Shown: in pieces, positions 2,132 through 19,321 of the stretch
Layout of the letters: each line of letters starts with the position of its first letter
Numbering within the stretch: position 1 is the stretch's first letter
From: a virus
Direction: 5' to 3' (one strand)
DNA: 32,171 nucleotides
Virus record (IMG/VR): IMGVR_UViG_3300029539_000017
Location: 1-32,171 of that record
Position numbers and translations under genes: made by a program
Notes under the pieces: model-generated
Database searches by the model: none
Seen by the model: the letters and a program-made list of their open reading frames with translations, nothing else
What the model was told of the DNA's origin: nothing

Positions 2132-2474
2132 AATAGCAGAGAAACACGCAGGAGGACGTCCAAGAATAAAGATTGATTATGAAGCAGTTGAAAAGCTTGC
2201 TTCTATTGGATGTACTCAAGAAGAAATTGCCGATTTCCTAGGATGTTCAGTAAGAACATTGTTAAGAAATAAAAAGTTTTGTCAGACATATAAAAGAGGT
2301 ATAAGCCACTCAAAAAGAAGTTTAAGACGTATGCAGTTTGATAAGGCTTCAAAAGGGAATACGACCATGCTTATTTGGTTAGGAAAACAAATGCTTGGAC
2401 AGAGAGAAAAGGTTGAACAAACAATGACACATGAGATTGAGGACCTAACACCTTTGGCAGATTTATTGAAATGA
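2109..2474 (+). CDS. terS: Terminase small subunit (HTH plus GGRP motif). Probable true start at in-frame ATA 2133.
   Basis: AGGRPRI motif, HTH IGCTQEEIADFLGCSVRTL, MLIWLGKQMLGQ. ATG 2109 has no SD; ATA 2133 follows AGGGGG by 8 nt and gives the N-terminus M-AEKHAGGRP typical of TerS. Confidence 0.75.
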   Translation: MIVIGGIKIAEKHAGGRPRIKIDYEAVEKLASIGCTQEEIADFLGCSVRTLLRNKKFCQTYKRGISHSKRSLRRMQFDKASKGNTTMLIWLGKQMLGQREKVEQTMTHEIEDLTPLADLLK

Positions 2475-3808
2475 TGACTAGAACGATTCCGTGGGGGAAA
2501 TTTTCAGATAAACATAAGAACTATATTAAGACCGCCCTAAATTACAAACAAAGTGTAGCAGAAGGAGCGGTACGAAGTGGCAAAACGATTGACCACTGCA
2601 TAATCTTTTCAATGTATTTGGAAACATGTGAAGATAAAATACATTTAGCGAGTGGGTCAAGCTTACCGAATGCGAAATTAAATATAGGCGATTGCAATGG
2701 TTTCGGCTTAGAGCATATCTTTCGTGGACGATGTCGTTGGGGTAAATACAAATCAAACGAAGCGTTATTTGTCCAAACAAAGACAGGCGAAAAGATTGTT
2801 ATATTTACAGGTGGCGGAAAGTCCGATTCATATAAGAGCATATTAGGTAACTCATATGGAGGATGGATTGCCACCGAAATAAATGAGCATTATGATTGTG
2901 AGGATTCTAGAACAAGTTTTATCAAAGTAGCAATGGCAAGACAGATTGCAAGTGTACATCCATTTACATTATGGGATTTAAACCCATCAAACCCAAACGC
3001 AGACATTTATAAGAATTACATAGATAAATTCATGGGATTGGATTGGTACAGATATGAGCATTTCAATATCTTTGATAATGCTACAATGAGCCAAGAAAGA
3101 ATCGAAGAAATCCAAAACAAATATGACATGAATTCAGTATGGTACAAGCGAGATATTCTAGGGGAAAGAATGGTTGCCGAAGGACTTGTATTCCCTTATT
3201 TTGCTAATGACTGCAAACCTTACCTATTCAAATATCAACATTTAAAAGAGAAGATGAAAGAAAAAGGGAAAAGGTTTAGTCATTTAATCATAGGAGTAGA
3301 CTTTGGAGACAACGGGTCGAAATATTCATGGCACTTAACAGGATTCACAAACGATTGGGATTATATGTGGGCGCTTGATGAAGGAGACATGGCAAAGTCA
3401 AATGCAATTGACGCAACAAAGTTCTGCAAAGCGTTTGTAAGGTTCTATAAGCGTTGTATTGAATGTTATGGATATATTGAATGGATATTTCCGGATAGTG
3501 CTTCAAATACGCTTATAAACACGCTTAGAGCTTATTTTTACGCTGAAGGATTAGACGGAAGTATAATTGCACCAGTTAAGAAGAATGAGCTTACAGACCG
3601 CCCTATAACAGTTGATAGCTTACTTGTTACAGGGCGATTAAAGATAGAAGAACATTGTAAGAATTTAATAAACGCATTGAGCGAATTAGTATGGGATGAA
3701 AAGAAAGACATCCCAAAAGATGAGAACGTAAACAACATTAATGATGATTGGGATTCGTTCTGCTATACATTTATAACCCATAGTGGATATATAGATTTAA
3801 GGAGGTAA
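2471..3808 (+). CDS. terL: Terminase large subunit (PBSX/Terminase_6-like; Walker A GAVRSGKT).
   Basis: ATG overlaps the TerS stop (ATGA). Walker A motif present. 445 aa with nuclease-like C-terminal half. Confidence 0.9.
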   Translation: MMTRTIPWGKFSDKHKNYIKTALNYKQSVAEGAVRSGKTIDHCIIFSMYLETCEDKIHLASGSSLPNAKLNIGDCNGFGLEHIFRGRCRWGKYKSNEALFVQTKTGEKIVIFTGGGKSDSYKSILGNSYGGWIATEINEHYDCEDSRTSFIKVAMARQIASVHPFTLWDLNPSNPNADIYKNYIDKFMGLDWYRYEHFNIFDNATMSQERIEEIQNKYDMNSVWYKRDILGERMVAEGLVFPYFANDCKPYLFKYQHLKEKMKEKGKRFSHLIIGVDFGDNGSKYSWHLTGFTNDWDYMWALDEGDMAKSNAIDATKFCKAFVRFYKRCIECYGYIEWIFPDSASNTLINTLRAYFYAEGLDGSIIAPVKKNELTDRPITVDSLLVTGRLKIEEHCKNLINALSELVWDEKKDIPKDENVNNINDDWDSFCYTFITHSGYIDLRR

Positions 3809-3811
3809 GAA

Positions 3812-5215
3812 ATAGAAACATCTAACACACGTAATCCGTGGTTTCAGAATTACCTAAACGATAGAGGGTATTATGTAGATACAAACGCAATTGAGATTAT
3901 TGAATTGTGCAATAAGTGGTATACAAATACCGAAACAGAATTTCATACGGCATATACCTTAAACAATGAGGAATACATGCTAGACAAAACAGACTTTGCA
4001 AAGCGTTTGTGCGAAGATGACGCAAACCTTATTGAAATCCTAGATATAAACGCTACGGAAGACAGTACAACAAATGATATTATTTCAGACATTCTAACGA
4101 AGAATAGATTTGATGTTATGTATAGGAAGCAAGTTGAACAAATGTCTGCAAATGGTACGGTAGGAGCTTATGTAACGGTATCGAATGCCGAGATTTATGA
4201 AGATGGTACATTTAGTGGAGGAGAAATCAGAATCAACTATTGTGATTCAATGAATATCCTACCATTAACTGTTATAAATGATGAAATCGTTGAGGTAGCT
4301 TTCGTTGGAGTAAATTATGAAAAACTAAAAAAAGTATATGTGATGGTCATGTTCTTAAAAGGACAAGATGAAAGATATATTGCAGAAACACATTACTTTA
4401 AAGAAACAGGCGAAGAAATAAAAGAGCGTGCTCAGATTGTTCAATTAGATGTGGTTAAGCCGTTTGCAATTATGAGAAATGCAAAGGTCAACAACTTACA
4501 AATGCAAGGGTACGGCTTACCGAAGATTTGGAGTGCAATTGCTCCTTTGAAAACAATTGATTTAACAATGACAATGTGGAATCGTGATTTATTGAAATCG
4601 GATAAAATCGTTCTTGTAAACGAAGCATTAATGCAAAAAGACGAGAATGGAAAAGTAAAACAGAATCCACAATTAAAGAATATCTTCGTTCAATTAGGTA
4701 GAGATAAGCTACCGGAAGAAAAAGCTTTATGGCAAGAATATAATCCAACAGTAAGGACGGCAGAAGTTGTTCAGTCACTAGAAACGGCGTTAAGTATCTT
4801 ATCAATGATGTTTGGATTCGGTACAAAAAAATACACGTTTGAAAGTGGAAGGATTGTCACTGCTACCGAATATATTGGTGAGAATCAAGACGCAATGAAG
4901 GAAGTTAACTCACAACGTAAAGAATCTACGGCATATATTCAAGATATTATTCAAGCAATAGCATACTTCTACGAATTAACACAAGGCAGAAAGCTTAATA
5001 TTAATTCATTAGACATTGCTATTGATTATGATGATACATATATCGAGGATAAGCAAAGCACGGCACAAGCGTTAAGAAATGACGCACTAACATTTGATAT
5101 TCCAAGATTGAAAATCATGTATTTCATGAAACAATACGGATTCACTGAGGAAGAAGCAACGGAGTTATTAAATGAAGAAATTCAAGATGATGGAGAGGAG
5201 GATGACGAAGAATAG
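3812..5215 (+). CDS. Portal protein (by position, size and acidic C-terminal tail). Start assigned to ATA 3812; the first canonical start is TTG 3905 with no SD.
   Basis: Follows TerL. The frame is open from the stop at 3806. GGAGG at 3801-3805 and ATA 6 nt later. The annotated TTG/ATG region lacks any SD. Confidence 0.7.
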   Translation: METSNTRNPWFQNYLNDRGYYVDTNAIEIIELCNKWYTNTETEFHTAYTLNNEEYMLDKTDFAKRLCEDDANLIEILDINATEDSTTNDIISDILTKNRFDVMYRKQVEQMSANGTVGAYVTVSNAEIYEDGTFSGGEIRINYCDSMNILPLTVINDEIVEVAFVGVNYEKLKKVYVMVMFLKGQDERYIAETHYFKETGEEIKERAQIVQLDVVKPFAIMRNAKVNNLQMQGYGLPKIWSAIAPLKTIDLTMTMWNRDLLKSDKIVLVNEALMQKDENGKVKQNPQLKNIFVQLGRDKLPEEKALWQEYNPTVRTAEVVQSLETALSILSMMFGFGTKKYTFESGRIVTATEYIGENQDAMKEVNSQRKESTAYIQDIIQAIAYFYELTQGRKLNINSLDIAIDYDDTYIEDKQSTAQALRNDALTFDIPRLKIMYFMKQYGFTEEEATELLNEEIQDDGEEDDEE

Positions 5216-7350
5216 CAACTACATATTTTCCATTCGTCTCAAGAAATGGTGATAGATTAGTACTATATGACGCTTTTAGAAGATTATTCTCAAGCTACTT
5301 CACAAATGGTGTGTTCATAGATGATTCTAGTTCAGACCATTTAAGAGTTGAGAAAGCTCAAGGCTTAACCTTAACAGTTAAAGCAGGACGAGCAAATATT
5401 AATGGAGCGTTCTATTGGCAGAAAGATGACGAAACCATCACACTAGAAAAGAATAGCGCTACTAAAAGCTACAATATCATTCTTAGATTGAATGATAATG
5501 ACGCATATAGAAACATTACATTAGTAGCAAGTGATATTGACAATGGAATTACAAGAAGTGATTCTATTTACGATTTAGTATTAGCTACGGTCACCGTAAC
5601 AGGCAATGCAAGTGAAGTTAAAGGTTCAGATATTACTGATACAAGATTAGATTCTACACGTTGTGGAGCAGTTACAAGCGCAATTAAGAGCGTACAATCG
5701 TTGGATTTATTTACTCAAGTAACTGAGCTATTCAAAGAAATTAAGGCTCAGAATGAATCTGAAATGAATGCAAATAGAACAGAGTTCAATGATTGGTTTG
5801 AAACTGTAAAGGATACATTAGACGCAGATACGGCAGGGAAGTTATCTAACAGAATTTCAAGCGTTGAAAAGATGATTATGGATAACCATTTCACTACTGT
5901 TCTATTAGCAGAAGATGGAACACTAGTGGATGAGAATGGTTATGAGATTCTAGCAGATTGGAAATACAAAGTTGATGGCAGTCAAGATTTAAACGGTGAC
6001 AACATTGGAGATTCAGACAAAATTGCGTATGAATTAGAGAACCTAAGAAATCAAATGAAGTTTGAATTAGAGCAAACTAAAGCGGAAACAAGTGAACTAA
6101 AGGAAGATTTATATGAGTTATACAATTTGTTACCTGAAGATGTTTTGTCAGTTATAAATGAAAATACACCAACAACATCATTAACAGGGAAACTAATTGA
6201 TATAGAAGGAAATCTTGTAGATTTTACAACCTGGAAAACAATGTATTTTACTGCAACAGAAGATTTTAAAATGTACGTCGATAATTTTACTAATAATTAT
6301 TTTAGAATTGGCATTTTCGATGGAGAAATCAAATCGGAAAATTTAATTTCCCTATACATGAAAAATATTGATGATGGTACAAATACTTTACCAACGGTTG
6401 ATAATAAAGCAAATGTTAAAACTGGAAATACTGTTGTATTTTCCATGACAAGCGGAACAACGAGTTTTAAAATTTTTAAAGTTACAAGAGGTTTAGTTTA
6501 CGAACCGAAAAAAATGTATTATTCCAAATCTGGAAATATTTTCGATATTTATGTTCATTCAAAAACCAGTGATAATTTCATGCACTACGTTTATAAACAA
6601 GATATTGATGATAGTATAAATCTTAATACATGGAGATTTTACACTTATGAAATTGTCGATGAAAATTTCAATCGTTTGTATGGTTGTTCACAAGTTACAC
6701 CATCTATTGAAATGGATTCAGTTGTAAAAGAAACTGATAGCGTTGATTTTATGGGTGGTTATCATGGAGATGAAAATATGACAGCTTTATCTGTTTTAGT
6801 TGATGGTAAAGTAATTGACATGTCTGAAGAAATCCCTTTAACAAAATTTTATAAAGAAATTCGGTTTTGTGGTACATCTATTATTGATAAGTGCAACACA
6901 CCTAACGATAATATGTTTACTCGTTATAAGACTAATGTTTTTAGTTTAGATGGTTATTATTCAAAGCAAAGATGGGTTGCACTACAGGAATGTAATTTAC
7001 AACTCGCCTATATGGGAATGATGAGTTTACCAGTTGCTGATAACGGTATTACAATGGTTACAACTGCTAGAATGGATAATAACTACATCGAACAAAAATT
7101 CCATGAAAATACAGTAGAAAACGGGGCAAAATACCCGTCAAAAGATGTTAGAGAAGTTGAAATTTACGGCAACAAATTATATGGAAAAGCACGATTTTTT
7201 ACAGATAATTATGGCTCAGCATATCGAGCATTTTGTGATGACAGCCAAAACAATAATTTCAAAGCATATTTCCGTGTTGGTGTCGGTGTTTCAGCATTAC
7301 ACACGGGAGAAGAATTGCGTGGAGAAATGCATGTTGAATTTATGTATTAA
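5212..7350 (+). CDS. Tail fibre / receptor-binding protein (XkdV-like size, ~712 aa) with an N-terminal fibre domain and an aromatic-rich C-terminal binding domain. Start at ATA 5212; the first canonical start is GTG 5311.
   Basis: The N-terminal region (…EFNDWFETVKDTLDADTAGKL…) resembles baseplate/fibre N-terminal domains. GGAGG at 5197-5201 and ATA 10 nt later; the frame is open from the stop at 5203. Confidence 0.6.
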   Translation: MATTYFPFVSRNGDRLVLYDAFRRLFSSYFTNGVFIDDSSSDHLRVEKAQGLTLTVKAGRANINGAFYWQKDDETITLEKNSATKSYNIILRLNDNDAYRNITLVASDIDNGITRSDSIYDLVLATVTVTGNASEVKGSDITDTRLDSTRCGAVTSAIKSVQSLDLFTQVTELFKEIKAQNESEMNANRTEFNDWFETVKDTLDADTAGKLSNRISSVEKMIMDNHFTTVLLAEDGTLVDENGYEILADWKYKVDGSQDLNGDNIGDSDKIAYELENLRNQMKFELEQTKAETSELKEDLYELYNLLPEDVLSVINENTPTTSLTGKLIDIEGNLVDFTTWKTMYFTATEDFKMYVDNFTNNYFRIGIFDGEIKSENLISLYMKNIDDGTNTLPTVDNKANVKTGNTVVFSMTSGTTSFKIFKVTRGLVYEPKKMYYSKSGNIFDIYVHSKTSDNFMHYVYKQDIDDSINLNTWRFYTYEIVDENFNRLYGCSQVTPSIEMDSVVKETDSVDFMGGYHGDENMTALSVLVDGKVIDMSEEIPLTKFYKEIRFCGTSIIDKCNTPNDNMFTRYKTNVFSLDGYYSKQRWVALQECNLQLAYMGMMSLPVADNGITMVTTARMDNNYIEQKFHENTVENGAKYPSKDVREVEIYGNKLYGKARFFTDNYGSAYRAFCDDSQNNNFKAYFRVGVGVSALHTGEELRGEMHVEFMY

Positions 7351-7430
7351 CTAACTAAATAAGAATTAAACTAACTAAGAATATGATAAATTAATCGACA
7401 ATCTTTATAAAAAACAAGGAGGAATATAGA

Positions 7431-8342
7431 ATGGTAGGAAAACAAGTAACAGAACTAGACGCATTGAGTAGCTTTACGGATACAAGCGTATTGCCTGTAC
7501 ATAATGGTGCAGGATTAAAAAAAGGAACATTAACGCAATTAGCAAATTATCTAGGGACTAAATTCAGTAATCCCAATTTATTAATTAACCCAAATTTTAA
7601 AATCAATATCAGAGGAAAAAATAGTTACACAAGAGGGTATTCAGTAGATAGATGGAATGTACAGAATGCAACTTTAGACGCTAGAACATTGGTGCTTACA
7701 AATCCGAATAGTTCAAACGGAATGTTTCTACAATCCTTAGAAGATAAACCAACAGGAACATTCACCGTAACTTTAAATGTAGCAAGTGTCACAGGATTAG
7801 TTAAGTTTGTATGGAAAGATGGAGACACTTACAAGACAGGTGTAGCAATTTCAAAAGGCGTAAATACATATACATTTACGGCTTCAAGCTTAACGTGGGT
7901 TGGTATTGAAATTGCAAGTGGTGCTTCAGTTCAGTTGATTTATATGAAACTAGAGCAAGGTTCAGTGGCTACAGATTACGTTGAGCCAAATGGCAGTGAA
8001 GAGCATGTAAAATGCCTTTGGTACAACAGAGAAATCACAGGATTAAGGAGTGGATATTTTTCAGTCAATAAGATTTATTTAGGCATTCATGAATGTGCTT
8101 CTATGAGAACAAGTAAACCAACACCTGCAGATATCGACCTAGCCGGTTGGATTTATATCGGAAATAGTACGATTACCACAAACAAATCCGATATCACGGC
8201 AGTAACGATGGACGAATATAAAGAGCTAGTACTAACACTCACACCTACATTAGCTAAAAGATTATCAAGCGTAGGTGATATGAATATTACGTATGTAATC
8301 GACAAAGGTAAGCGAGTTCTATTGGACGCAGAAATTTATTAG
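7431..8342 (+). CDS. Second tail fibre protein (conserved fibre N-terminus VTELDALSS…KKGTLTQLANYL, beta-rich C-terminus with a DRW motif).
   Basis: AAGGAGGA + ATG; N-terminal motif typical of Firmicutes phage fibre proteins. Confidence 0.6.
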   Translation: MVGKQVTELDALSSFTDTSVLPVHNGAGLKKGTLTQLANYLGTKFSNPNLLINPNFKINIRGKNSYTRGYSVDRWNVQNATLDARTLVLTNPNSSNGMFLQSLEDKPTGTFTVTLNVASVTGLVKFVWKDGDTYKTGVAISKGVNTYTFTASSLTWVGIEIASGASVQLIYMKLEQGSVATDYVEPNGSEEHVKCLWYNREITGLRSGYFSVNKIYLGIHECASMRTSKPTPADIDLAGWIYIGNSTITTNKSDITAVTMDEYKELVLTLTPTLAKRLSSVGDMNITYVIDKGKRVLLDAEIY

Positions 8343-8350
8343 GAGGGACT

Positions 8351-8698
8351 ATGAACAACGAATATAAAGTATATGTATCATTACAAGATGGGTATATCAC
8401 ATCTATCAATTCAGAAATCTTCTTATCACAAGATGAAATTGAAACAATGACTGAAATCGACAAAGGGCAAGGAGACAAATATGCCCACGCTCAAGGTCTA
8501 TATCTAGAAAACGGATTAGTTGATAAATACGGAAGATATAACTACAAATATGTAGAAGGTAAAGTGATTGAGGTTGCAGAAGCAGAAAAGCCAACAATTG
8601 AAGGACCAAAAGCAGTACCAACTGAGCAAGATAAGATTAATGCACAATTAATGTTACAGATTGCTCAATTAAAAGCTCAATTGAATGGGGTGAAGTAG
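8351..8698 (+). CDS. Small fibre-associated protein (XkdW-position analog) with a C-terminal coiled coil.
   Basis: AGGAGGG + ATG; 115 aa; sits between the fibre genes and the XkdX-like gene as in PBSX. Confidence 0.4.
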   Translation: MNNEYKVYVSLQDGYITSINSEIFLSQDEIETMTEIDKGQGDKYAHAQGLYLENGLVDKYGRYNYKYVEGKVIEVAEAEKPTIEGPKAVPTEQDKINAQLMLQIAQLKAQLNGVK

Positions 8699-8699
8699 T

Positions 8700-8819
8700 A
8701 TGAGCTATGAATTAATCAAATCGTATTATGAATTAGGCTTATTTACAAAGAGCGATTTAGAAATGTTTGCTTCTATCGGTTGGATTACAGACAAACAGAA
8801 GAAAGAATTAATTAAATAG
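8700..8819 (+). CDS. XkdX-family small protein (39 aa).
   Basis: MSYELIKSYYELGLFTKSDLEMFASIGWITDKQKKELIK matches the Phage_XkdX pattern (IK.YY..G.YT..D...FV..G.IT..E..EI). Confidence 0.6.
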   Translation: MSYELIKSYYELGLFTKSDLEMFASIGWITDKQKKELIK

Positions 8820-8835
8820 GCTTTAAAAGCGTTTT

Positions 8836-8858
8836 AAAGGGCATTTAAGCCCTTTTTC
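8836..8858 (+). terminator. Rho-independent terminator after the fibre module (AAAGGGC-atttaa-GCCCTTT + T-run), preceded by an AT hairpin at 8821-8839.
   Basis: Inverted repeat followed by TTTTT. Confidence 0.6.
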
Positions 8859-8874
8859 TATAGGGGGTATATAA

Positions 8875-10056
8875 ATGTTAAGTGAAGAAGAACAAAGAGA
8901 ACAAGAGCGTAAAGAACGGCAAGAGCAAAGGAAGCAAGAACGCCTACAAAAACAGATTGAGAAAAGACGAAAGCTTGAAGAAAGAGAAAGAAAAAGTGTA
9001 AAGCGTGCTAGTGTATTTGAATTAGGAATGATGATATTTGTATCTAACAAAATTCGTGAAGTTTTAGAGAAAAGCACCGAAGAAAGCGCAAAATTTAATG
9101 TGATATTGGCAAAATCACTAGTAGATTTGCGTAAATTCACAAAAAAAGAATCAAAAAGCCTAAAAAAAGATGTAATTAAGGAATCAAAAAAGGATTTAGA
9201 AGAAAATAAGCAAGGAACACTTGATTTAATCAAAGAAGCAAGTGGAAAACCTATCAAAAATAAGCTCAAGATAGATTTATATATCAGTCCACAAAATGAC
9301 ACTTCAAAGCGTTGGAAGAAATATATCAAGACAAGTGCTAACACGTATGCAATCGGTAAAGATAAACTACCGGTATTCTTTACAAAGGTAGTTCAAGAAG
9401 AAGTTAAAAATGTAGTAGGTGGTAAATGCACAATTGATGATTCTTGTAGAAAAGCTATCTCAAAATTAGCAAATAGTGGCGTAAAGATTGTGGAATATGA
9501 TACAGGCGTTAAAAGAAATGTGGATGTATGGGTGAGACAACAAATGCAGTACGCAGAAAAGGAATCATCACAAGAAATTAACAATAAATGTGCAAAAGAT
9601 ATGGGAGTTACTGTATTTGAATTTGACGCTCACGCAAATGCAAGACCAAGTCATAAGAAGTGGCAAGGAAAGCGATACGACACGCAAGGGAAACTATATC
9701 CTAGTTTGTATCAGTTAACACATGGAGAAGAAAAAGACTATGGATGTAGACACTTCGCTCAACCTGTTTGGGATGTTGATATGCCTTATGCCTACACAAA
9801 AGAGCAGTTGAAGAATATTGATACAAAGCCTTTCACATTCCAAGGAAAAGAATATGAAGGATATGAAGCTAGGCAGTATCAAAGAGAATTAGAAAGAAAC
9901 ATCAGAGCGTTAAAAAGGGAAGTAATCTTATTGGACAATCAAGGATTAGGCAGTACAGAAACCAAAATCAAGCTAAAACACGCAAATGCAACGTATAAAG
10001 CTTTCAGTTCTGAAATGGGAGACAGAGTTCACAACGATAGGCTTAGAATTGGCTAA
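8875..10056 (+). CDS. Head morphogenesis / minor capsid protein (SPP1 gp7 / Mu F-like) with an unusual ~60-aa Glu/Arg/Lys-rich N-terminal extension.
   Basis: AGGGGG + ATG; C-terminal region …DAHANARPSHKKWQGKRYD… matches the Phage_Mu_F motif. Confidence 0.75.
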   Translation: MLSEEEQREQERKERQEQRKQERLQKQIEKRRKLEERERKSVKRASVFELGMMIFVSNKIREVLEKSTEESAKFNVILAKSLVDLRKFTKKESKSLKKDVIKESKKDLEENKQGTLDLIKEASGKPIKNKLKIDLYISPQNDTSKRWKKYIKTSANTYAIGKDKLPVFFTKVVQEEVKNVVGGKCTIDDSCRKAISKLANSGVKIVEYDTGVKRNVDVWVRQQMQYAEKESSQEINNKCAKDMGVTVFEFDAHANARPSHKKWQGKRYDTQGKLYPSLYQLTHGEEKDYGCRHFAQPVWDVDMPYAYTKEQLKNIDTKPFTFQGKEYEGYEARQYQRELERNIRALKREVILLDNQGLGSTETKIKLKHANATYKAFSSEMGDRVHNDRLRIG

Positions 10057-10202
10057 ATAGGTCTGTAACAGTGCGTATTGTATCTATATAGGTGTGTAAC
10101 AGTATAAACGCTCACATTGTGAGCTATTATTCAAGCTAAAATATAGTTAGCCAAAGCCATACCGGAGAAGATTCGGTTTATAAATAACTTTAGGAGGGCA
10201 AA

Positions 10203-14845: not shown

Positions 14846-17425
14846 ATATCAGACGGAACATTAAAGTTTGATACAAAGATAGACACAAGTGGTCTAGAGA
14901 ATGGTATTAAATCTGTAAAGGTTGTATCAAGTGAAGCCACAAATGCTATCAAAGATACTTCAAAAGCGATTGATAAGCTAGGTTCTGATGGTTCAAAAGC
15001 ACCGCCAAAAATTAAAGAAAAACTTAAAGATTTAAACGAAGAGCAAAAGAATACACAAACCGAAACGCAAGAAACAGGTTCAAAGTTTGATGTATTTAAG
15101 CAAGTAGGAAACAGTGCCTTAGAATCAATTCAAGGTGGATTTGATGGACTGCTAGAGAAGATTCAGAATATTAGTCCGGAAGCTTCTGCAATTACTGAAA
15201 CATTAACAGGTTTAGGCGTTGGAGGTGTCGTTGGTGTTACTGCCGTAGCAGGAGCAGTTGGTGGTATGGCACTAGCGATTAAGGCCGGTGTCAATCAAGC
15301 TACTGAATTAGATGACGCTATGGCTAAATTCCAAGCTCAGACAGGTGCTTCAAGTAATGAAATGAGCAAATTTAAAAACATTGCTCGTGATGTTTGGTCA
15401 AATAATTTCGGTGAAGATATTTCAGATGTTGCCGATATGATGGCACGTGTTAAACAACAAATGCAAGGCATAAGTGATGTTGACCTAAAGAATGTGACCG
15501 AGGATTTGATTACATTAAGAGACGCTTATGGAATGGATGAGAATGAGACCTTAAGAGGTGCGAAACAATTAATGGAACAGTTTGGAATCAGTTCCGAAAA
15601 AGCTTTTGACCTTATAGCAAAAGGTGCTCAGAATGGTTTGGATTATTCCGGAGAATTAGGTGATAATATTGCAGAATACGCAGGTAAATTCAAGCAAGCA
15701 GGATATTCGGCAGAAGAATATTTACAAACTATTACAAATGGTGTAAAAAGTGGTTCTTATAACCTTGATAAAGCGCATGACGCAGTAAATGAAATTACTA
15801 CACAAATGTCAAACGGAACTATTGAAAAAGCGTTAGATAGTTTCAATGATAAGACAAAAGAAGTTTTTCAAGCATATAAAGAAGGTGGCGCAACACAAAA
15901 AGATGTGCAAGACGCAATCATCCAAGATATTAAGGAAACAACAAATCAACAAGAAGCATTAAACAAAGCAAGTATTGCATTCGGCACAATGGGAGAAGAT
16001 TTCAACCTTAAGTTTATAACATCTTTATCATCTGTAGGGGATGAATATAACAATGTAGCCGGAACAATGGATAAGGTTAAAGATATTGCAAATGGTGGCT
16101 TAAAAAACGCTTTAAGTGGTTTAGGACGTGCATTTCTTGATTCATTTACTCCAATAGGCGAACTTATTACCCCTATTCTTTCCGGTATCATTGTATTAAT
16201 TACATTAGCTATACAAGATATTCAACAAGGGTTTGCCAAAGTCGGTGAAGTTATTTCAAGCGTATTTGGTAGCATTGATACAAGTGGAATCACAAATATC
16301 GTTAACCAAGTTTCCAAAGTCTTAAAGCCTGCATTTGATGAAGTAAAAAAAGCAATTGAGCAGATGAAAGTTGCACTTGAACCTATCGCAAAAGAAATTT
16401 TAGGCAAGATAGGCAGTGCAATTCAAAATGTAGTAAACCAAGCTCAAAAGATTCTTAGCGTAGTAGGCCCACCGATTCTAGCAATCATTAAAAAGATTAT
16501 TCAAACAGTTATCGGCATGATTCCTGTAATAACATCTATTCTTCAAGTAGTTGGAAGTGTGGTAAGTGGAATCATTTCATTCATAAATATGGTTGTAACG
16601 TATGTTGGAACTGCAATTGCAAAAATACTAGGATTTATCATGCCTATTGTTCAAATTGTTGCTACAATCGTAGCGAATATTTGGTCTGTAATATTAACAG
16701 TTGCGCAGAATATTTGGAGCAAAGTCAGTGAAGTAGTAACTGCAATTATTGGATTTGTAAGCAATTTGTTTAAAATAGTTTCGGATGTAGTAGGCAAAAT
16801 TTGGAGCAATATTCAAGATTCCATGAACAAGGTAAGAGACAAGGTTCAAGGCGTTATTGATAATATCAATAACTATTTCAATAATGTTAAGAGCACTGTT
16901 TCAGATGTATTCAATGGAATTTGGTCTAAAGTTCAAGGCGTAATGGATAATGTAGGGAATAAAATTTCAAATGTCCTACAAGGAATACAAAATTCATGGA
17001 GCGGTTTAAAAGGATTTGTAAGTGGTGTGTTTGGTGGAATTGAAGGAGCAGTTAGTTCATTAGTTGGAAGTGTAAAAGGAATGGTAAATGGTGTTATCGG
17101 TGGTATTAATGGGGCAATCGGTATCATCAATAAGATTCCCGGAGTTCACATTGGAAAGATTCCAAGACTAGAGCGTGGTGGTGTATTGAAACGTGGTCAA
17201 ATTGGTTTGTTGGAAGGTAATGGAGCGGAAGCCGTCGTACCTTTAGAAAAAAATAAAGCGTGGATTCGTGCCGTAGCTAAAGATATGGCTCAAATCATGC
17301 CTAGCGTAACAACAAATAACAACGGACAGACTATCAACTTCTACAATAAAGTTCAAAGTCCGGATGAGATAGCTAGAATGTTACGTATGCAAGCAAGATA
17401 TGGATATGGAGGTGTAGTTCAATAG
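14846..17425 (+). CDS. Tail tape measure protein (~859 aa); start assigned to ATA 14846 (the first canonical start is ATG 15266, 140 codons downstream in an open frame).
   Basis: The frame is open from the stop at 14843. AAAGGAGGTGG at 14827-14837. N-terminus SDGTLKFDTKIDTSGL and a long hydrophobic/Gly-rich central region typical of TMPs. Confidence 0.8.
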   Translation: MSDGTLKFDTKIDTSGLENGIKSVKVVSSEATNAIKDTSKAIDKLGSDGSKAPPKIKEKLKDLNEEQKNTQTETQETGSKFDVFKQVGNSALESIQGGFDGLLEKIQNISPEASAITETLTGLGVGGVVGVTAVAGAVGGMALAIKAGVNQATELDDAMAKFQAQTGASSNEMSKFKNIARDVWSNNFGEDISDVADMMARVKQQMQGISDVDLKNVTEDLITLRDAYGMDENETLRGAKQLMEQFGISSEKAFDLIAKGAQNGLDYSGELGDNIAEYAGKFKQAGYSAEEYLQTITNGVKSGSYNLDKAHDAVNEITTQMSNGTIEKALDSFNDKTKEVFQAYKEGGATQKDVQDAIIQDIKETTNQQEALNKASIAFGTMGEDFNLKFITSLSSVGDEYNNVAGTMDKVKDIANGGLKNALSGLGRAFLDSFTPIGELITPILSGIIVLITLAIQDIQQGFAKVGEVISSVFGSIDTSGITNIVNQVSKVLKPAFDEVKKAIEQMKVALEPIAKEILGKIGSAIQNVVNQAQKILSVVGPPILAIIKKIIQTVIGMIPVITSILQVVGSVVSGIISFINMVVTYVGTAIAKILGFIMPIVQIVATIVANIWSVILTVAQNIWSKVSEVVTAIIGFVSNLFKIVSDVVGKIWSNIQDSMNKVRDKVQGVIDNINNYFNNVKSTVSDVFNGIWSKVQGVMDNVGNKISNVLQGIQNSWSGLKGFVSGVFGGIEGAVSSLVGSVKGMVNGVIGGINGAIGIINKIPGVHIGKIPRLERGGVLKRGQIGLLEGNGAEAVVPLEKNKAWIRAVAKDMAQIMPSVTTNNNGQTINFYNKVQSPDEIARMLRMQARYGYGGVVQ

Positions 17426-18294
17426 ATATCAATAAGGTAAGAGTTATCGTCCGTAGGGATGATGGCATAGAATTTGAAATCGACAACCAAAACAGATGGA
17501 GAATACCATCTAGTGACGGTTTGGATGGATTCGATTACGTAGCACCTTCATATACAACTCAAGACAATGCATTTGGAAATGGCGCTAGATTAATTGGTTC
17601 ACGTATTCCAACAAAAGAAAGAAGCGTAAAAGCTATCTTTAAAGGCTCATTAGAAGAGAAAAGAGAAGAAAGGGAGAAGCTACGGCGCTTCTTCCAATAT
17701 TCTCATGTATTTGATGTTATCGTTGAGTACATGGGAGAAAAGAAATATTGCAGAGGTCGTTTATATGCGTATAGCTTGCCTACTGTTAACATCTACAAAG
17801 AATTAGAGCTTAACTTCACGATATTATGCACGCAACCTTTATTGCTTTCATTTGATGATTTTGCAAGAAATATTGCAGAAATTGGCGAAGGTTTAGCGTT
17901 CAATTTTGAAATACCGGAAACAGGCGTAAACTTTGGAACATTTACATTCGCTAGAGAAATCTATATTGATAATCAAGGCGATACAGAAACATACTGTAGA
18001 GCCGTTATTGAAGCGTTTGGAGATGTGATGAATCCGAAACTTTTTAATAAAGATAAATATATTCGTGTATTAGATACGCTACACAATGGTGATGTATTAG
18101 AAATTGATTTAGTTTCTGAGCCTATTTCGATTAAAAAGAATGGTGTGAATTGTATCGGTAAAGTCGACAGAACCTCATCATTTAATGATATGACGATTCA
18201 ATTGGGCGAGAATATCATAGGATATACGGCAGACAATGGAGATACGAACTTAGCTTGTACGGTATATTACAATGAAAGGTATTTAGGTATATAG
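17422..18294 (+). CDS. Distal tail protein (Dit); start assigned to ATA 17422 (the first canonical start is TTG 17521).
   Basis: GGAGG at 17408-17412 and ATA 9 nt later, overlapping the TMP stop (ATAG). Position after the TMP. Confidence 0.6.
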   Translation: MDINKVRVIVRRDDGIEFEIDNQNRWRIPSSDGLDGFDYVAPSYTTQDNAFGNGARLIGSRIPTKERSVKAIFKGSLEEKREEREKLRRFFQYSHVFDVIVEYMGEKKYCRGRLYAYSLPTVNIYKELELNFTILCTQPLLLSFDDFARNIAEIGEGLAFNFEIPETGVNFGTFTFAREIYIDNQGDTETYCRAVIEAFGDVMNPKLFNKDKYIRVLDTLHNGDVLEIDLVSEPISIKKNGVNCIGKVDRTSSFNDMTIQLGENIIGYTADNGDTNLACTVYYNERYLGI

Positions 18295-18295
18295 T

Positions 18296-19309
18296 ATGTC
18301 TTACTTTGGATTAGATAAAGATTTCAACATTGTTACACATCTAGCTCCTTATAACGTGCAGTGGAATAGGCGATATTATGAAACAGGAGATTTCGAGATT
18401 TATATTGATATAGGGCAGTATTCAAGCGATATTAAATATATTTATTCAACTGAGGATAAAGAGTTAGGAATTGTAGAAATACCACATTATTCGGCGTCAA
18501 ATAACACGAAACAAATGTTGTTAAAAGGTTCATTTTTTGAAAAGATTCTAGCAGATGATTGTATTTATCCTACATTCTCAAGTAGCGGAAAAATTGTTGA
18601 TGTTGTCAAAAAGCTATTAGACAAGTATTGCTCATGGAAAATGGGGTATAGATATGATGAATCCATTACCGATAGAGTAGATTTTCAAGAAACAGGAGCG
18701 AACCTTGACGAGAAGCTTTATGAGTTGTTATATCCGTTAGAATTGTCGTTCCGTATAGAATATGACTATGTATCGAGTACGTTCACATTCGTGTTGTATC
18801 GTGGTCGTGACTTGACTCAGAACAATGCAGATGGAAACAACTTTGTTACATTCTCTACAGAGTTTGGAAACATTGAAGAACCGGACGTTATGATTGATTC
18901 TAGTAAATACAAGAACTATGCAATCATTTGTGGTGAAGGACAGTCAGAAGAGCGTATTTATGTAGAATATGACGCTAGGATAGATAAGAATGAACGGATT
19001 AAAAAATTGTTCGTAGACGCACGTTCTGAGCGTATGGGTGATGATGTGACACTTGAGGATTACAAGAAAGCATTGATTCAAAAAGGAATTGAAAAACTAG
19101 CAGATTGTCAAATTGAAGAAAATGTGAATTTCGGATTGAATACTGATTCGTACGAATACAAGGTTGATTTTGATTTAGGGGATAAAGTGGATGTTATAGT
19201 AGCAGATATTGGGTTAGTAATGACGGCAAGAATTAGAAATATATTTGAAGTCATTAAGAATGGATATAGAACCTTAGAATTAGAGGTTGATAATTTAAGA
19301 ATCATGTAA
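18296..19309 (+). CDS. Tail tip protein Tal, short form (337 aa; structural N-terminal domain only, no fibre extension).
   Basis: Immediately follows Dit; size and composition consistent with the Sipho_tail N-terminal domain. Confidence 0.5.
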   Translation: MSYFGLDKDFNIVTHLAPYNVQWNRRYYETGDFEIYIDIGQYSSDIKYIYSTEDKELGIVEIPHYSASNNTKQMLLKGSFFEKILADDCIYPTFSSSGKIVDVVKKLLDKYCSWKMGYRYDESITDRVDFQETGANLDEKLYELLYPLELSFRIEYDYVSSTFTFVLYRGRDLTQNNADGNNFVTFSTEFGNIEEPDVMIDSSKYKNYAIICGEGQSEERIYVEYDARIDKNERIKKLFVDARSERMGDDVTLEDYKKALIQKGIEKLADCQIEENVNFGLNTDSYEYKVDFDLGDKVDVIVADIGLVMTARIRNIFEVIKNGYRTLELEVDNLRIM

Positions 19310-19321
19310 GGAGTGAATTTA

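Follow-up and report, generated by a model that had tools for sequence, protein, structure and literature searches.

A probable host-adhesion gene cassette between the portal and MuF genes in a lineage of gut phages: likeness to a displaced p2/LC3-type receptor-binding system, and probable ATA start codons

The closest described counterpart of the genes examined here is the host-recognition system of the Lactococcus P335 group III phages phiLC3 and r1t, which is itself p2-like and comprises a Dit, a short Tal and the receptor-binding protein (RBP) ORF343. ORF343 of LC3 has been validated as the RBP by neutralising antibodies (PMC5301393), and its shoulder domain has been modelled as docking on the 'arm and hand' of Dit through N-terminal residues 6-22 (PMC9692632). 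Dit measures 298 amino acids (aa) in LC3 and p2, and 253 aa in the armless TP901-1 (PMC5301393). Here, we describe four genes that lie between the genes for the portal and a MuF-like minor head protein in a stretch of viral DNA of 32,171 nucleotides (IMG/VR record IMGVR_UViG_3300029539_000017, positions 1 to 32,171), referred to throughout as the window. The first of them encodes a protein of 712 aa, F712, whose N-terminal shoulder is homologous to that of ORF343 (30% identity over ~220 aa). As in phiLC3 and r1t, the Tal of the window consists of the hub domain only, Dit is ~290-298 aa long, the RBP runs from shoulder through a helical stretch with a neck to a distal domain, and this distal domain is the exchangeable part that determines host range. 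Unlike in phiLC3 and r1t, the RBP gene is flanked by portal and MuF, ~12 kb ahead of the Dit and Tal genes, and has a probable ATA start; its distal part of ~390 aa belongs to an unrelated, uncharacterised family and is not a small beta-sandwich head; and it is followed by a second adhesin gene, F303, and two small genes.

Two further systems invite comparison. The Firmicutes tail-end cassette has the order fibre, small protein, XkdX and holin, and is represented by xkdV-xkdW-xkdX of PBSX and by the metagenomic, Erysipelotrichales-like loci L032-L035; the prophage L032 shares with the window the gene order, the trailing hairpin and the holin family. Unlike in PBSX and L032-L035, the cassette of the window does not follow the tail genes and is detached from the holin, and only its XkdX passes the test for membership of the PBSX families. 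The BppU-BppL proteins of TP901-1 and Tuc2009 and the neck passage structure (NPS) have a comparable modular architecture of anchor, coiled coil and carbohydrate-binding module (CBM), with ancillary saccharide-binding adhesins. The distal-domain family of F712 is even fused to the BppU_N anchor in some other phages, but F712 and F303 themselves are without BppU_N, and their anchor is of a different fold family. Tail-fibre genes have been displaced in other phages as well, such as the minor tail genes in the right arm of mycobacteriophage Marvin and ltf of T5. In these phages the otherwise rigid siphophage gene order is likewise broken for host-recognition genes only, although the phage groups and the destinations differ. 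A shallow literature search returned no described cassette between portal and MuF and nothing relevant on RBP genes beside the portal. The supported description is that of a p2/LC3-like RBP system whose cassette has been displaced and is hot-swappable.

The window is a complete phage genome, as bases 1-99 are identical to bases 32073-32171 (a 99-nt direct repeat at the two ends), which leaves 32,072 unique bp; judged by these ends, the genome was assembled as a circle or is terminally redundant. Every gene lies on the plus strand, to which all coordinates below refer, and the G+C content is ~33%. The 5' part carries ParB-like, radical-SAM, terS, terL and portal genes, the four open reading frames (ORFs) of the cassette and the MuF-like gene (PF06152). 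Scaffold, major capsid, connector, major tail, chaperone, tape measure, Dit, Tal (PF14594) and holin (PF05105) genes occupy the middle, and a small HTH protein, five small ORFs, a CHAP endolysin and early genes make up the 3' part. Neither an integrase gene nor a tRNA gene was found in the window.

Four co-oriented ORFs (5212-7350, 7431-8342, 8351-8698 and 8700-8819) stand between the end of the portal gene at 5215 and the MuF-like gene, precisely where the preliminary description had located them. The portal gene (3812..5215) matches phrog_533 with E=1e-53 and is 95-99% identical at the aa level across relatives; the ORF list calls it from TTG 3905, and the match then begins at position 39 of phrog_533. 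The MuF-like gene (8875..10056) matches PF06152 with E=3e-36 and is 90-97% identical in relatives. Scans of IMG/VR with F712, Tal and the portal as queries retrieved 28, 31 and 38 loci, respectively, drawn from at least four samples (3300045988, 3300029240, 3300029526 and 3300029219). The four ORFs are conserved at the protein level in 28-38 of these contigs and, on these sequence comparisons, are real genes. In each of the 34 IMG/VR contigs with a portal and a MuF gene, the two genes are separated by 2.2-4.6 kb, and this interval opens with the F712 N-domain. A synteny comparison with related phages, which had been proposed as a check, thus gives the order portal, cassette, MuF in 34 of 34 contigs, and the insert is absent from the outgroups, in which MuF directly follows the portal (MT837573, whose portal is 44% identical, bajarodcaudo virus 3 and Acutalibacter phage Fontainebleau).

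The conservation of this interval is uneven. In the relatives, the portal and MuF are 90-99% identical to those of the window, p115 and XkdX are conserved, F303 is 40-87% identical, and F712 is 68-95% identical over residues 1-255, with matches never extending past residue 272. The conserved flanks comprise the 3' end of the portal gene with F712 codons 1-78 on one side, and XkdX, a hairpin and the 5' end of MuF on the other; the payload between them ranges from 2.2 to 4.6 kb among phages that are otherwise 90-99% identical. With such near-invariant flanks around a variable payload, the site behaves like a slot into which host-range modules are swapped. A search of the cassette for mobile-element genes and for repeats at its flanks found neither, and insertion by a mobile element was rejected as its origin for lack of repeats at the flanks. 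The gene order might also be an assembly artefact, a chimera or a recent accidental insertion in one genome, as the window is a metagenome-type assembly without a cultured relative. However, 28-38 contigs, drawn from four IMG samples or more, have junctions that agree with those of the window to the base, the overlap of the F712 start with the portal stop (ATAG) is kept in all relatives, and the search for flanking repeats and mobile-element genes was negative, so that the probability of this explanation is practically negligible.

The N-terminal region of F712 (residues 1-155, 5212..5676) is the beta-sandwich 'shoulder' or anchor domain of p2/LC3-type RBPs according to tblastn, AlphaFold2 (AF2), BFVD and PDB comparisons, and its residues 1-78 are almost invariant across relatives. 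In tblastn searches of 50,697 phage records, the N-terminal ~220 aa were found in 161 records, which include Paenibacillus larvae phages, Lactococcus phages of the r1t/LC3 type, Butyrivibrio phages and C. difficile phiCD6356; Bacillus is not among the top genera listed. The matches to LC3 orf343, r1t, Flyfo, Closwp03 and Fontainebleau have 28-33% identity with E values of 1e-16 to 2e-22, and the 30% identity with LC3 orf343 extends over residues 6-226 (E=1e-16 in the database search, 6e-21 locally). The AF2 model of full-length F712 is confident for residues 10-155 only (pLDDT 85-97). Searched against BFVD, this domain retrieves 47 models at E<=1e-3, nearly all of them named 'Receptor Binding Protein' (including '(sandwich domain)'), 'minor tail protein' or 'tail fiber', and in the PDB it matches SPP1 gp22 (2xc8, a p2-shoulder-like fold) with a probability of 0.91 and the phi812 baseplate (9euj_G) with a probability of 1.0. 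F712 therefore shares the N-terminal beta-sandwich shoulder that characterises p2/LC3-type RBPs; it does not have their small trimeric beta-sandwich C-terminal head, and its gene at 5212-7350 is far from the place right after Dit and the short Tal (17422-19309) where theirs stands. In all four contexts examined, namely phiLC3, Flyfo Tbat2_7, Fontainebleau and Closwp03, the F712 homologue directly follows the tape measure protein (TMP), a Dit of 291-305 aa and a short Tal of 369-387 aa.

Cassette proteins encoded within a block of head genes might be head fibres or capsid decoration proteins, an alternative that the preliminary description had raised, and the names of the homologues in PHROG and RefSeq ('head protein') point the same way. 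F712 indeed matches phrog_1220 and phrog_9534, both called 'head protein', but the gene positions and the LC3 experiments contradict that name for this family: the homologues so named lie directly after Tal in every annotated phage examined, and one of them is a validated RBP (PMC5301393). The hypervariable, enzyme-bearing distal domains described below are also typical of RBPs. In the proposed fold check, F712 and F303 matched RBPs, minor tail proteins or carbohydrate-binding modules, head proteins being missing from the results, and neither capsid, decoration nor head-fibre proteins were matched in the PDB sequence, PDB Foldseek and BFVD results. With the fold and sequence searches free of any head protein, the alternative gains no support, and we judge it most unlikely. 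As an observation on annotation, phrog_1220, phrog_9534 and phrog_5339 and the RefSeq records NC_004302, NC_005822, NC_015262 and others carry the label 'head protein' or 'virion structural protein' for members that stand directly after Tal, and the 'head protein' label looks like a propagated mis-annotation.

Beyond the shoulder, residues 163-317 (5698..6162) are predicted by AF2 secondary structure and BLAST comparison to form a helical stalk with a neck motif at residues 211-254. Residues 213-254 match phrog_25620, 'tail collar fiber', and residues 214-300 are ~61% identical to a 923-aa fibre of the prophage L031. The distal domain (residues 432-712, 6505..7347) belongs to a widespread uncharacterised family with an invariant GGYHGDE motif, which has 415 representatives at E<=1e-3, is always C-terminal in long modular proteins and is joined to the BppU_N baseplate anchor in three of 41 members. 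The distal domain has no match in Pfam and PDB searches; sequence and profile searches of the PDB with F712, its C-terminus, the C-terminal family and F303 gave nothing significant. The G+C content dips to 0.29 over 6001-7000. The family is absent from all 28 IMG/VR relatives, whose distal domains are instead an SGNH/GDSL esterase, SASA, BNR sialidase-like, polysaccharide deacetylase, discoidin or Collar domain. In five relatives (L009, L010, L016, L018 and L025) the F712-like gene encodes only ~255-270 aa, comprising shoulder, stalk and neck, and the F303-like gene follows directly; by analogy with BppU and BppL, the N-terminal part of F712 may be an adaptor for F303.

F303, the putative second adhesin (303 aa, 7431..8342), has a conserved N-terminal anchor peptide of residues 1-45, which is nearly invariant in 35 sequences, and two CBM-like beta-sandwich domains at residues ~66-176 and ~188-299 (AF2 pLDDT 76). 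Foldseek matches for these domains comprise CBM16, CBM29, CBM4, CBM61 and the receptor-binding domains of CDTb. F303 has 1741 homologues, one of which is named 'tail fiber protein', and no match by tblastn in the 50,697 phage records. The small accessory protein p115 (115 aa, 8351..8698; phrog_24451, E=7e-26) travels with F303, as in L032, where a 116-aa neighbour of F303 is 72% identical to it. The last gene encodes an XkdX-family protein of 39 aa (8700..8819), which matches PF09693 Phage_XkdX with E=2e-6 and 28.1 bits against a cut-off of 23.5, as well as phrog_134, and scores 21.3 bits with TIGR01669, under the cut-off of 28.2; by these profile scores, it is a member of the XkdX family for Pfam and not an equivalog for NCBIfam. 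The preliminary description had likened the genes to an XkdV/W/X module as in PBSX. This likeness holds for XkdX, by its 28.1 bits with PF09693, but not for p115 as XkdW: p115 has no match to any Pfam family at E<=1, XkdW (PF09636) included, and none to NCBIfam.

The usual context of XkdX is that of the last small gene of a fibre block, before the holin and lysis genes. That context holds for the XkdX-family gene of L032-L035, itself a Pfam call without a sequence match to the XkdX of the window at E<=1e-3; in the window, MuF follows instead. The order in L032-L035 is TMP, Dit, Tal, several genes, F303 (80% identical), the 116-aa protein (72%), XkdX, a hairpin, a Phage_holin_4_1 holin (62%) and a lysin. 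In L031, a 923-aa fibre and two small genes precede F303 (80%), homologues of five small window genes (g144, g69, g203, BclA_C and g145), a holin and a CHAP lysin (82%). Compared with these prophages, the window looks like an L031/L032-type genome whose fibre block was taken from between Tal and the holin, where 12 nt are left, and placed after the portal.

Dit (290 aa, 17422..18294; PF22768) probably begins at an ATA that overlaps the TMP stop as ATAG and matches the Dit of Fontainebleau by tblastn with E=3e-28. A length of 257 aa for Dit needs correcting: 33 upstream codons have to be included for Dit to align with its homologues of 291-305 aa in LC3, Flyfo, Fontainebleau and Closwp03, and no start other than ATA 17422 makes it as long as they are. 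By analogy with LC3, Dit is the presumed docking partner of the F712 shoulder. Tal (337 aa, 18296..19309) is covered by PF14594 Sipho_Gp37 over residues 7-332 and is homologous to the Tals of Fontainebleau (E=2e-40), Flyfo, Closwp03 and LC3; the short length without a C-terminal extension that had been noted for it is correct, with the family spanning it end to end and the holin gene next. Dit and Tal of the window are thus in the same families as in LC3, Flyfo, Closwp03 and Fontainebleau, which indicates that the triad of Dit, Tal and RBP N-domain was co-inherited. The canonical RBP site, apparently vacated, spans the 12 nt from the Tal stop to the holin start at ATA 19322 (19310..19321). The holin directly follows Tal in all 29 relatives whose DNA extends past Tal (of 31 Tal-centred loci), and no other RBP candidate was found in the complete 32,072-bp genome. 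In two of the phages with the canonical arrangement, Fontainebleau (L106, 9723-10748) and Closwp03 (L107, 10081-11076), a reverse transcriptase gene lies two to three genes downstream of the F712-N homologue, which suggests diversity-generating retroelements acting on neighbouring tail proteins.

We propose, with a probability of about 0.78, that the four genes form a host-adhesion cassette with the following roles, docking and relocation. F712 would be a presumably trimeric RBP at the tail tip, whose p2/LC3-type shoulder plugs into the hub of Dit (290 aa) and short Tal (337 aa), while its helical stalk carries an exchangeable distal domain that would bind or modify a cell-wall glycan. F303, with its 45-aa anchor and two CBM-like domains, would act as a second adhesin. 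The small accessory proteins p115 and XkdX, which always occur with F303, might help in assembly or attachment, a role that is a guess. In an ancestor of the lineage, the whole block including its terminal hairpin would have moved from the Tal-holin junction to the portal-MuF junction, so as to be transcribed together with packaging and head genes, and F712 would be translated from an AUA overlapping the portal stop (ATAG), behind a strong Shine-Dalgarno (SD) sequence in the last portal codons. The preliminary description had likewise suggested that receptor-binding functions left their place after the tail genes for one among the head genes, and homology, gene context, folds and the lack of another RBP candidate all speak for it.

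Co-variation of the F712 N-domain with its presumed partners was striking at first but did not hold up: in 22 genomes, the Mantel r is 0.89 with Dit and 0.85 with Tal (p<=1e-4), compared with ~0.1 for portal and MuF. In 29 genomes the correlations are r=0.74 (Dit) and 0.48 (Tal), and they fall to 0.21 and 0.26 (p ~0.1 and 0.07) when contig 012380 is left out; F712 residues 1-78, the region expected to contact the hub, show no variation. Other observations also weigh against the proposal. The alignment of the window Dit with residues 160-298 of LC3 Dit, which include arm residues 158-173, is gapless, at 24% identity with a weak E value of 0.003. The distal 390 aa of F712 are poorly modelled (AF2 pLDDT 30-40) and lack a known fold, and the move is polarised by parsimony, with the outgroups as reference. 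Lastly, lactococcal NPS collar fibres sit at the neck although they are encoded in the tail module (PMC9692632), so that gene homology does not fix the position of a protein in the particle.

This last case raises the question of whether the cassette encodes neck or collar fibres (a neck passage structure, or whiskers) at the head-tail junction, which would serve as ancillary adhesins and hence be encoded beside the portal. The cassette does adjoin the portal gene; the lactococcal NPS, likewise of ~700 aa, combines an N-terminal anchor with a coiled coil and a CBM, and shows that gene and virion positions can uncouple (PMC9692632); F303 has CBM-like domains, and F712 residues 213-254 match the 'tail collar fiber protein' family phrog_25620. 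However, NPS anchors resemble BppU_N, and neither F712 nor F303 gave a match to BppU_N (PF10651); of the LC3 proteins, it is the RBP ORF343 and not the NPS ORF672 that shares homology with the F712 anchor. Portal distances do not co-vary with F712-N (r ~0.06), and collar fibres here would leave a complete genome, with its short Tal and plain Dit, without a tail-tip RBP. On this evidence we regard collar fibres as unlikely and retain the reading of a relocated tail-tip adhesion cassette.

The start of F712 (5212..7350) requires separate treatment, as it is probably an ATA that overlaps the TAG stop of the portal gene (ATAG). An SD-like sequence, GGAGAGGAGGA (5192..5202), lies within the final codons of the portal gene, with 10 nt between it and ATA 5212, and is kept as GGAGAGG[A/G]GGA in 28 of 28 relatives, as is the ATAG layout. 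A TGA closes the F712 frame up to 5206, where it opens, and GTG 5311 is its first ATG, GTG or TTG, which is why gene callers give F712 679 aa; public gene calls of the relatives have shorter and inconsistent N-termini. Distant homologues align to residue 1, with their N-terminal Met opposite the ATA codon, and codons 5-15 encode the family motif (Y/F)(P/F)F..(N)GDR. Among 23 distinct relatives, 22 of the 29 variable sites in 5212-5310 are third codon positions of the F712 frame, and codon changes in this frame are 29 synonymous to 5 non-synonymous, whereas the two alternative frames give ratios of 2:29 and 3:29. This purifying selection on codons 1-33, together with the alignment to homologue N-termini, excludes a start at GTG 5311. 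The length of 712 aa given in the preliminary description is confirmed by the N-terminal alignment and the codon-change ratio, though the codon at 5212 is ATA and not ATG, GTG or TTG. The reading frame thus extends upstream of the first canonical start, and initiation at the AUA itself is what the alignments point to.

The absence of a canonical start codon at 5212 leaves room for two other explanations, a 679-aa product from GTG 5311 or an N-terminus reached by frameshifting from the portal frame, which would yield a portal-fibre fusion. Known programmed frameshift sites, such as those of dnaX and prfB, also have an SD-like element 8-10 nt before a stop codon, and the element upstream of the portal stop resembles this layout. 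Codons 1-33, however, are under purifying selection in the F712 frame and align to the extreme N-termini (Met) of homologues, the sequence GAA-GAA-TAG permits no re-pairing for a -1 slip, and the F712 frame opens just two codons before the ATA. Moreover, the same layout of SD and ATA recurs at nine or ten other genes, several of which have no overlapping upstream ORF, and for two of these a homologue has ATG exactly at the ATA position. We consider both explanations very unlikely.

At the other end of the cassette lies a hairpin, AAAGGGC-(6 nt)-GCCCTTT followed by TT (8836..8857), with a 7-bp stem (8836-8842/8849-8855, four G-C pairs), a 6-nt loop and then TTCT. The preliminary description had read it as the cassette's own terminator at 8836-8858. 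The hairpin itself is conserved, its stem being invariant, without covariation, in 17 of 17 relatives; the terminator role is doubtful. Its three A-U stem pairs consume most of the T-run, and a terminator scan did not call it. No promoter-like sites were detected between the hairpin and the MuF, scaffold and capsid genes, with 19 nt from the hairpin to the MuF start, and with no promoter before them an efficient terminator would silence these essential head genes. The hairpin is best read as a weak terminator, an attenuator or a structure at an mRNA end; an alternative fold that would mask the SD of MuF was also considered. An analogous hairpin stands after XkdX and before the holin in the prophage L032, and the hairpin may have travelled along with the cassette. 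In a comparison of L003, L009, L014, L016, L020 and L021, the loop (8843-8848) was ATTTAA in some and TTAAAT, the reverse complement, in others, while the stem did not differ; an inversion of the hairpin seems to have occurred.

The ATA start of F712 is one of ten probable ones in the window. The others belong to the portal (3812), the major capsid protein (10802), a connector of the Minor_capsid_2 family (12600), the major tail protein (13378), the tape measure (14846, adding 140 aa), Dit (17422, adding 33 aa), the holin (19322), the CHAP endolysin (22439, adding 29 aa) and an HTH_36 protein (27010), and a further ATA start is possible at 2133. Each site has a strong SD with the ATA 6-11 nt later, at most 10 codons from the opening of the frame (at most two at six sites); the portal ATA at 3812, for example, lies 6 nt after an AGGAGG at 3800-3805. 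The ATA-started genes have no usable ATG, GTG or TTG where their homologues start; for the holin and the connector, an earlier in-frame GTG or TTG exists, without an SD. All ten sites are ATA in every relative, except that contig 064919 has ATG where the major tail gene starts. In the L031 lysin, which is 82% identical to the endolysin, the ATG stands at the position of the endolysin ATA, and the CHAP domain with its catalytic Cys is seen only in the ATA-started lysin. Sites combining SD and ATA number 12 in the window versus 0-3 per locus in control phages, L031 and L032 among them. Neighbouring genes, as well as unrelated prophages with a homologous cassette and lysis genes, use AUG, and standard gene callers shorten all ATA-started proteins of the window.

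To our knowledge, routine and efficient AUA initiation has not been described for any phage or bacterium, and the literature search found nothing relevant on ATA or AUA start codons in phages. Since the genes with probable ATA starts include those for the capsid and the tail tube, whose products are the most abundant in the virion, AUA must be read efficiently. The start-codon pattern is a more surprising result than the relocated cassette. Three candidate causes were tried and rejected. Reassignment of ATA to Met does not agree with internal ATA codons, which exchange mainly with ATT and ATC (415 exchanges, versus 91 with ATG) and behave as Ile; a phage tRNA reading AUA would need a tRNA gene, which the window lacks; and the radical-SAM gene (682-1989) is not the cause, as most relatives lack it and still keep the ATA starts. 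A tentative and rather doubtful proposal is that the ATA starts are a lineage-wide translation programme, in which a phage-controlled relaxation of start-codon fidelity times or balances the virion and lysis proteins. Such relaxation might come about, for example, through interference with IF3 or the initiator tRNA, and the coupling of the RBP gene to the portal stop through ATAG would be one instance of this programme.

The lineage is documented by metagenomic contigs. Megablast of positions 5000-9000 and 1-25000 against the 50,697 phage records gave zero matches. Among GTDB representative genomes, the portal query had no match and the F303 query only one, of 27% identity, in a metagenome-assembled genome of Lachnospiraceae. 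The bacterial flank of prophage L032 is nearest to Erysipelotrichales (Catenisphaera 62%, Faecalibaculum 57%); from this flank of a cassette-sharing prophage only, the host is probably a gut bacterium of the Erysipelotrichales. The relatives (L003-L030) fall into two packaging types. The first has the ParB-like and radical-SAM genes (51-1989 in the window) and a terL (2471-3808) 97-99% identical to that of the window; the second is without the radical-SAM gene, and its terL is only ~65% identical. The portal is 95-99% identical in both types, and this uniform portal beside a split terL points to a sharp recombination boundary between the two genes.

Some observations concern other parts of the genome. 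Five small ORFs (g144, g69, g203, BclA_C at 21521-21940, and g145; together 20163-22385) lie between the holin and the endolysin, and BclA_C is a stand-alone TNF/C1q-like domain protein. The same block, g144-g69-g203-BclA_C-g145, occurs in prophage L031 between the fibre genes and the holin, with 34-83% identity, and may serve in lysis as an accessory or provide another adhesin. Positions 19803-20069 encode an 88-aa protein that has a sigma-70 region-4/HTH domain, overlapping the 3' end of the holin gene, an odd site for a regulator. A perfect hairpin, GCTCACATTGTGAGC, with a T-rich tail occurs twice, at 10110-10124 after MuF and at 31883-31897 near the genome end; the copy at 10110-10124 was called terminator-like on both strands.

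For siphophages in general, the finding means that the search for RBPs by the rule of looking at the genes after Tal can fail wholesale, as in this lineage of at least 34 gut-metagenome genomes. As these RBP genes are named 'head protein' and are shortened by gene callers, they would be missed by automated host-range prediction and by RBP mining. The cassette is at the same time a natural and well-delimited swap site, through which phages that infect Erysipelotrichales-like gut bacteria could be re-targeted. The ATA starts, if confirmed, would bear on start-codon selection in Gram-positive hosts and on the number of mis-annotated phage proteins in metagenomes.

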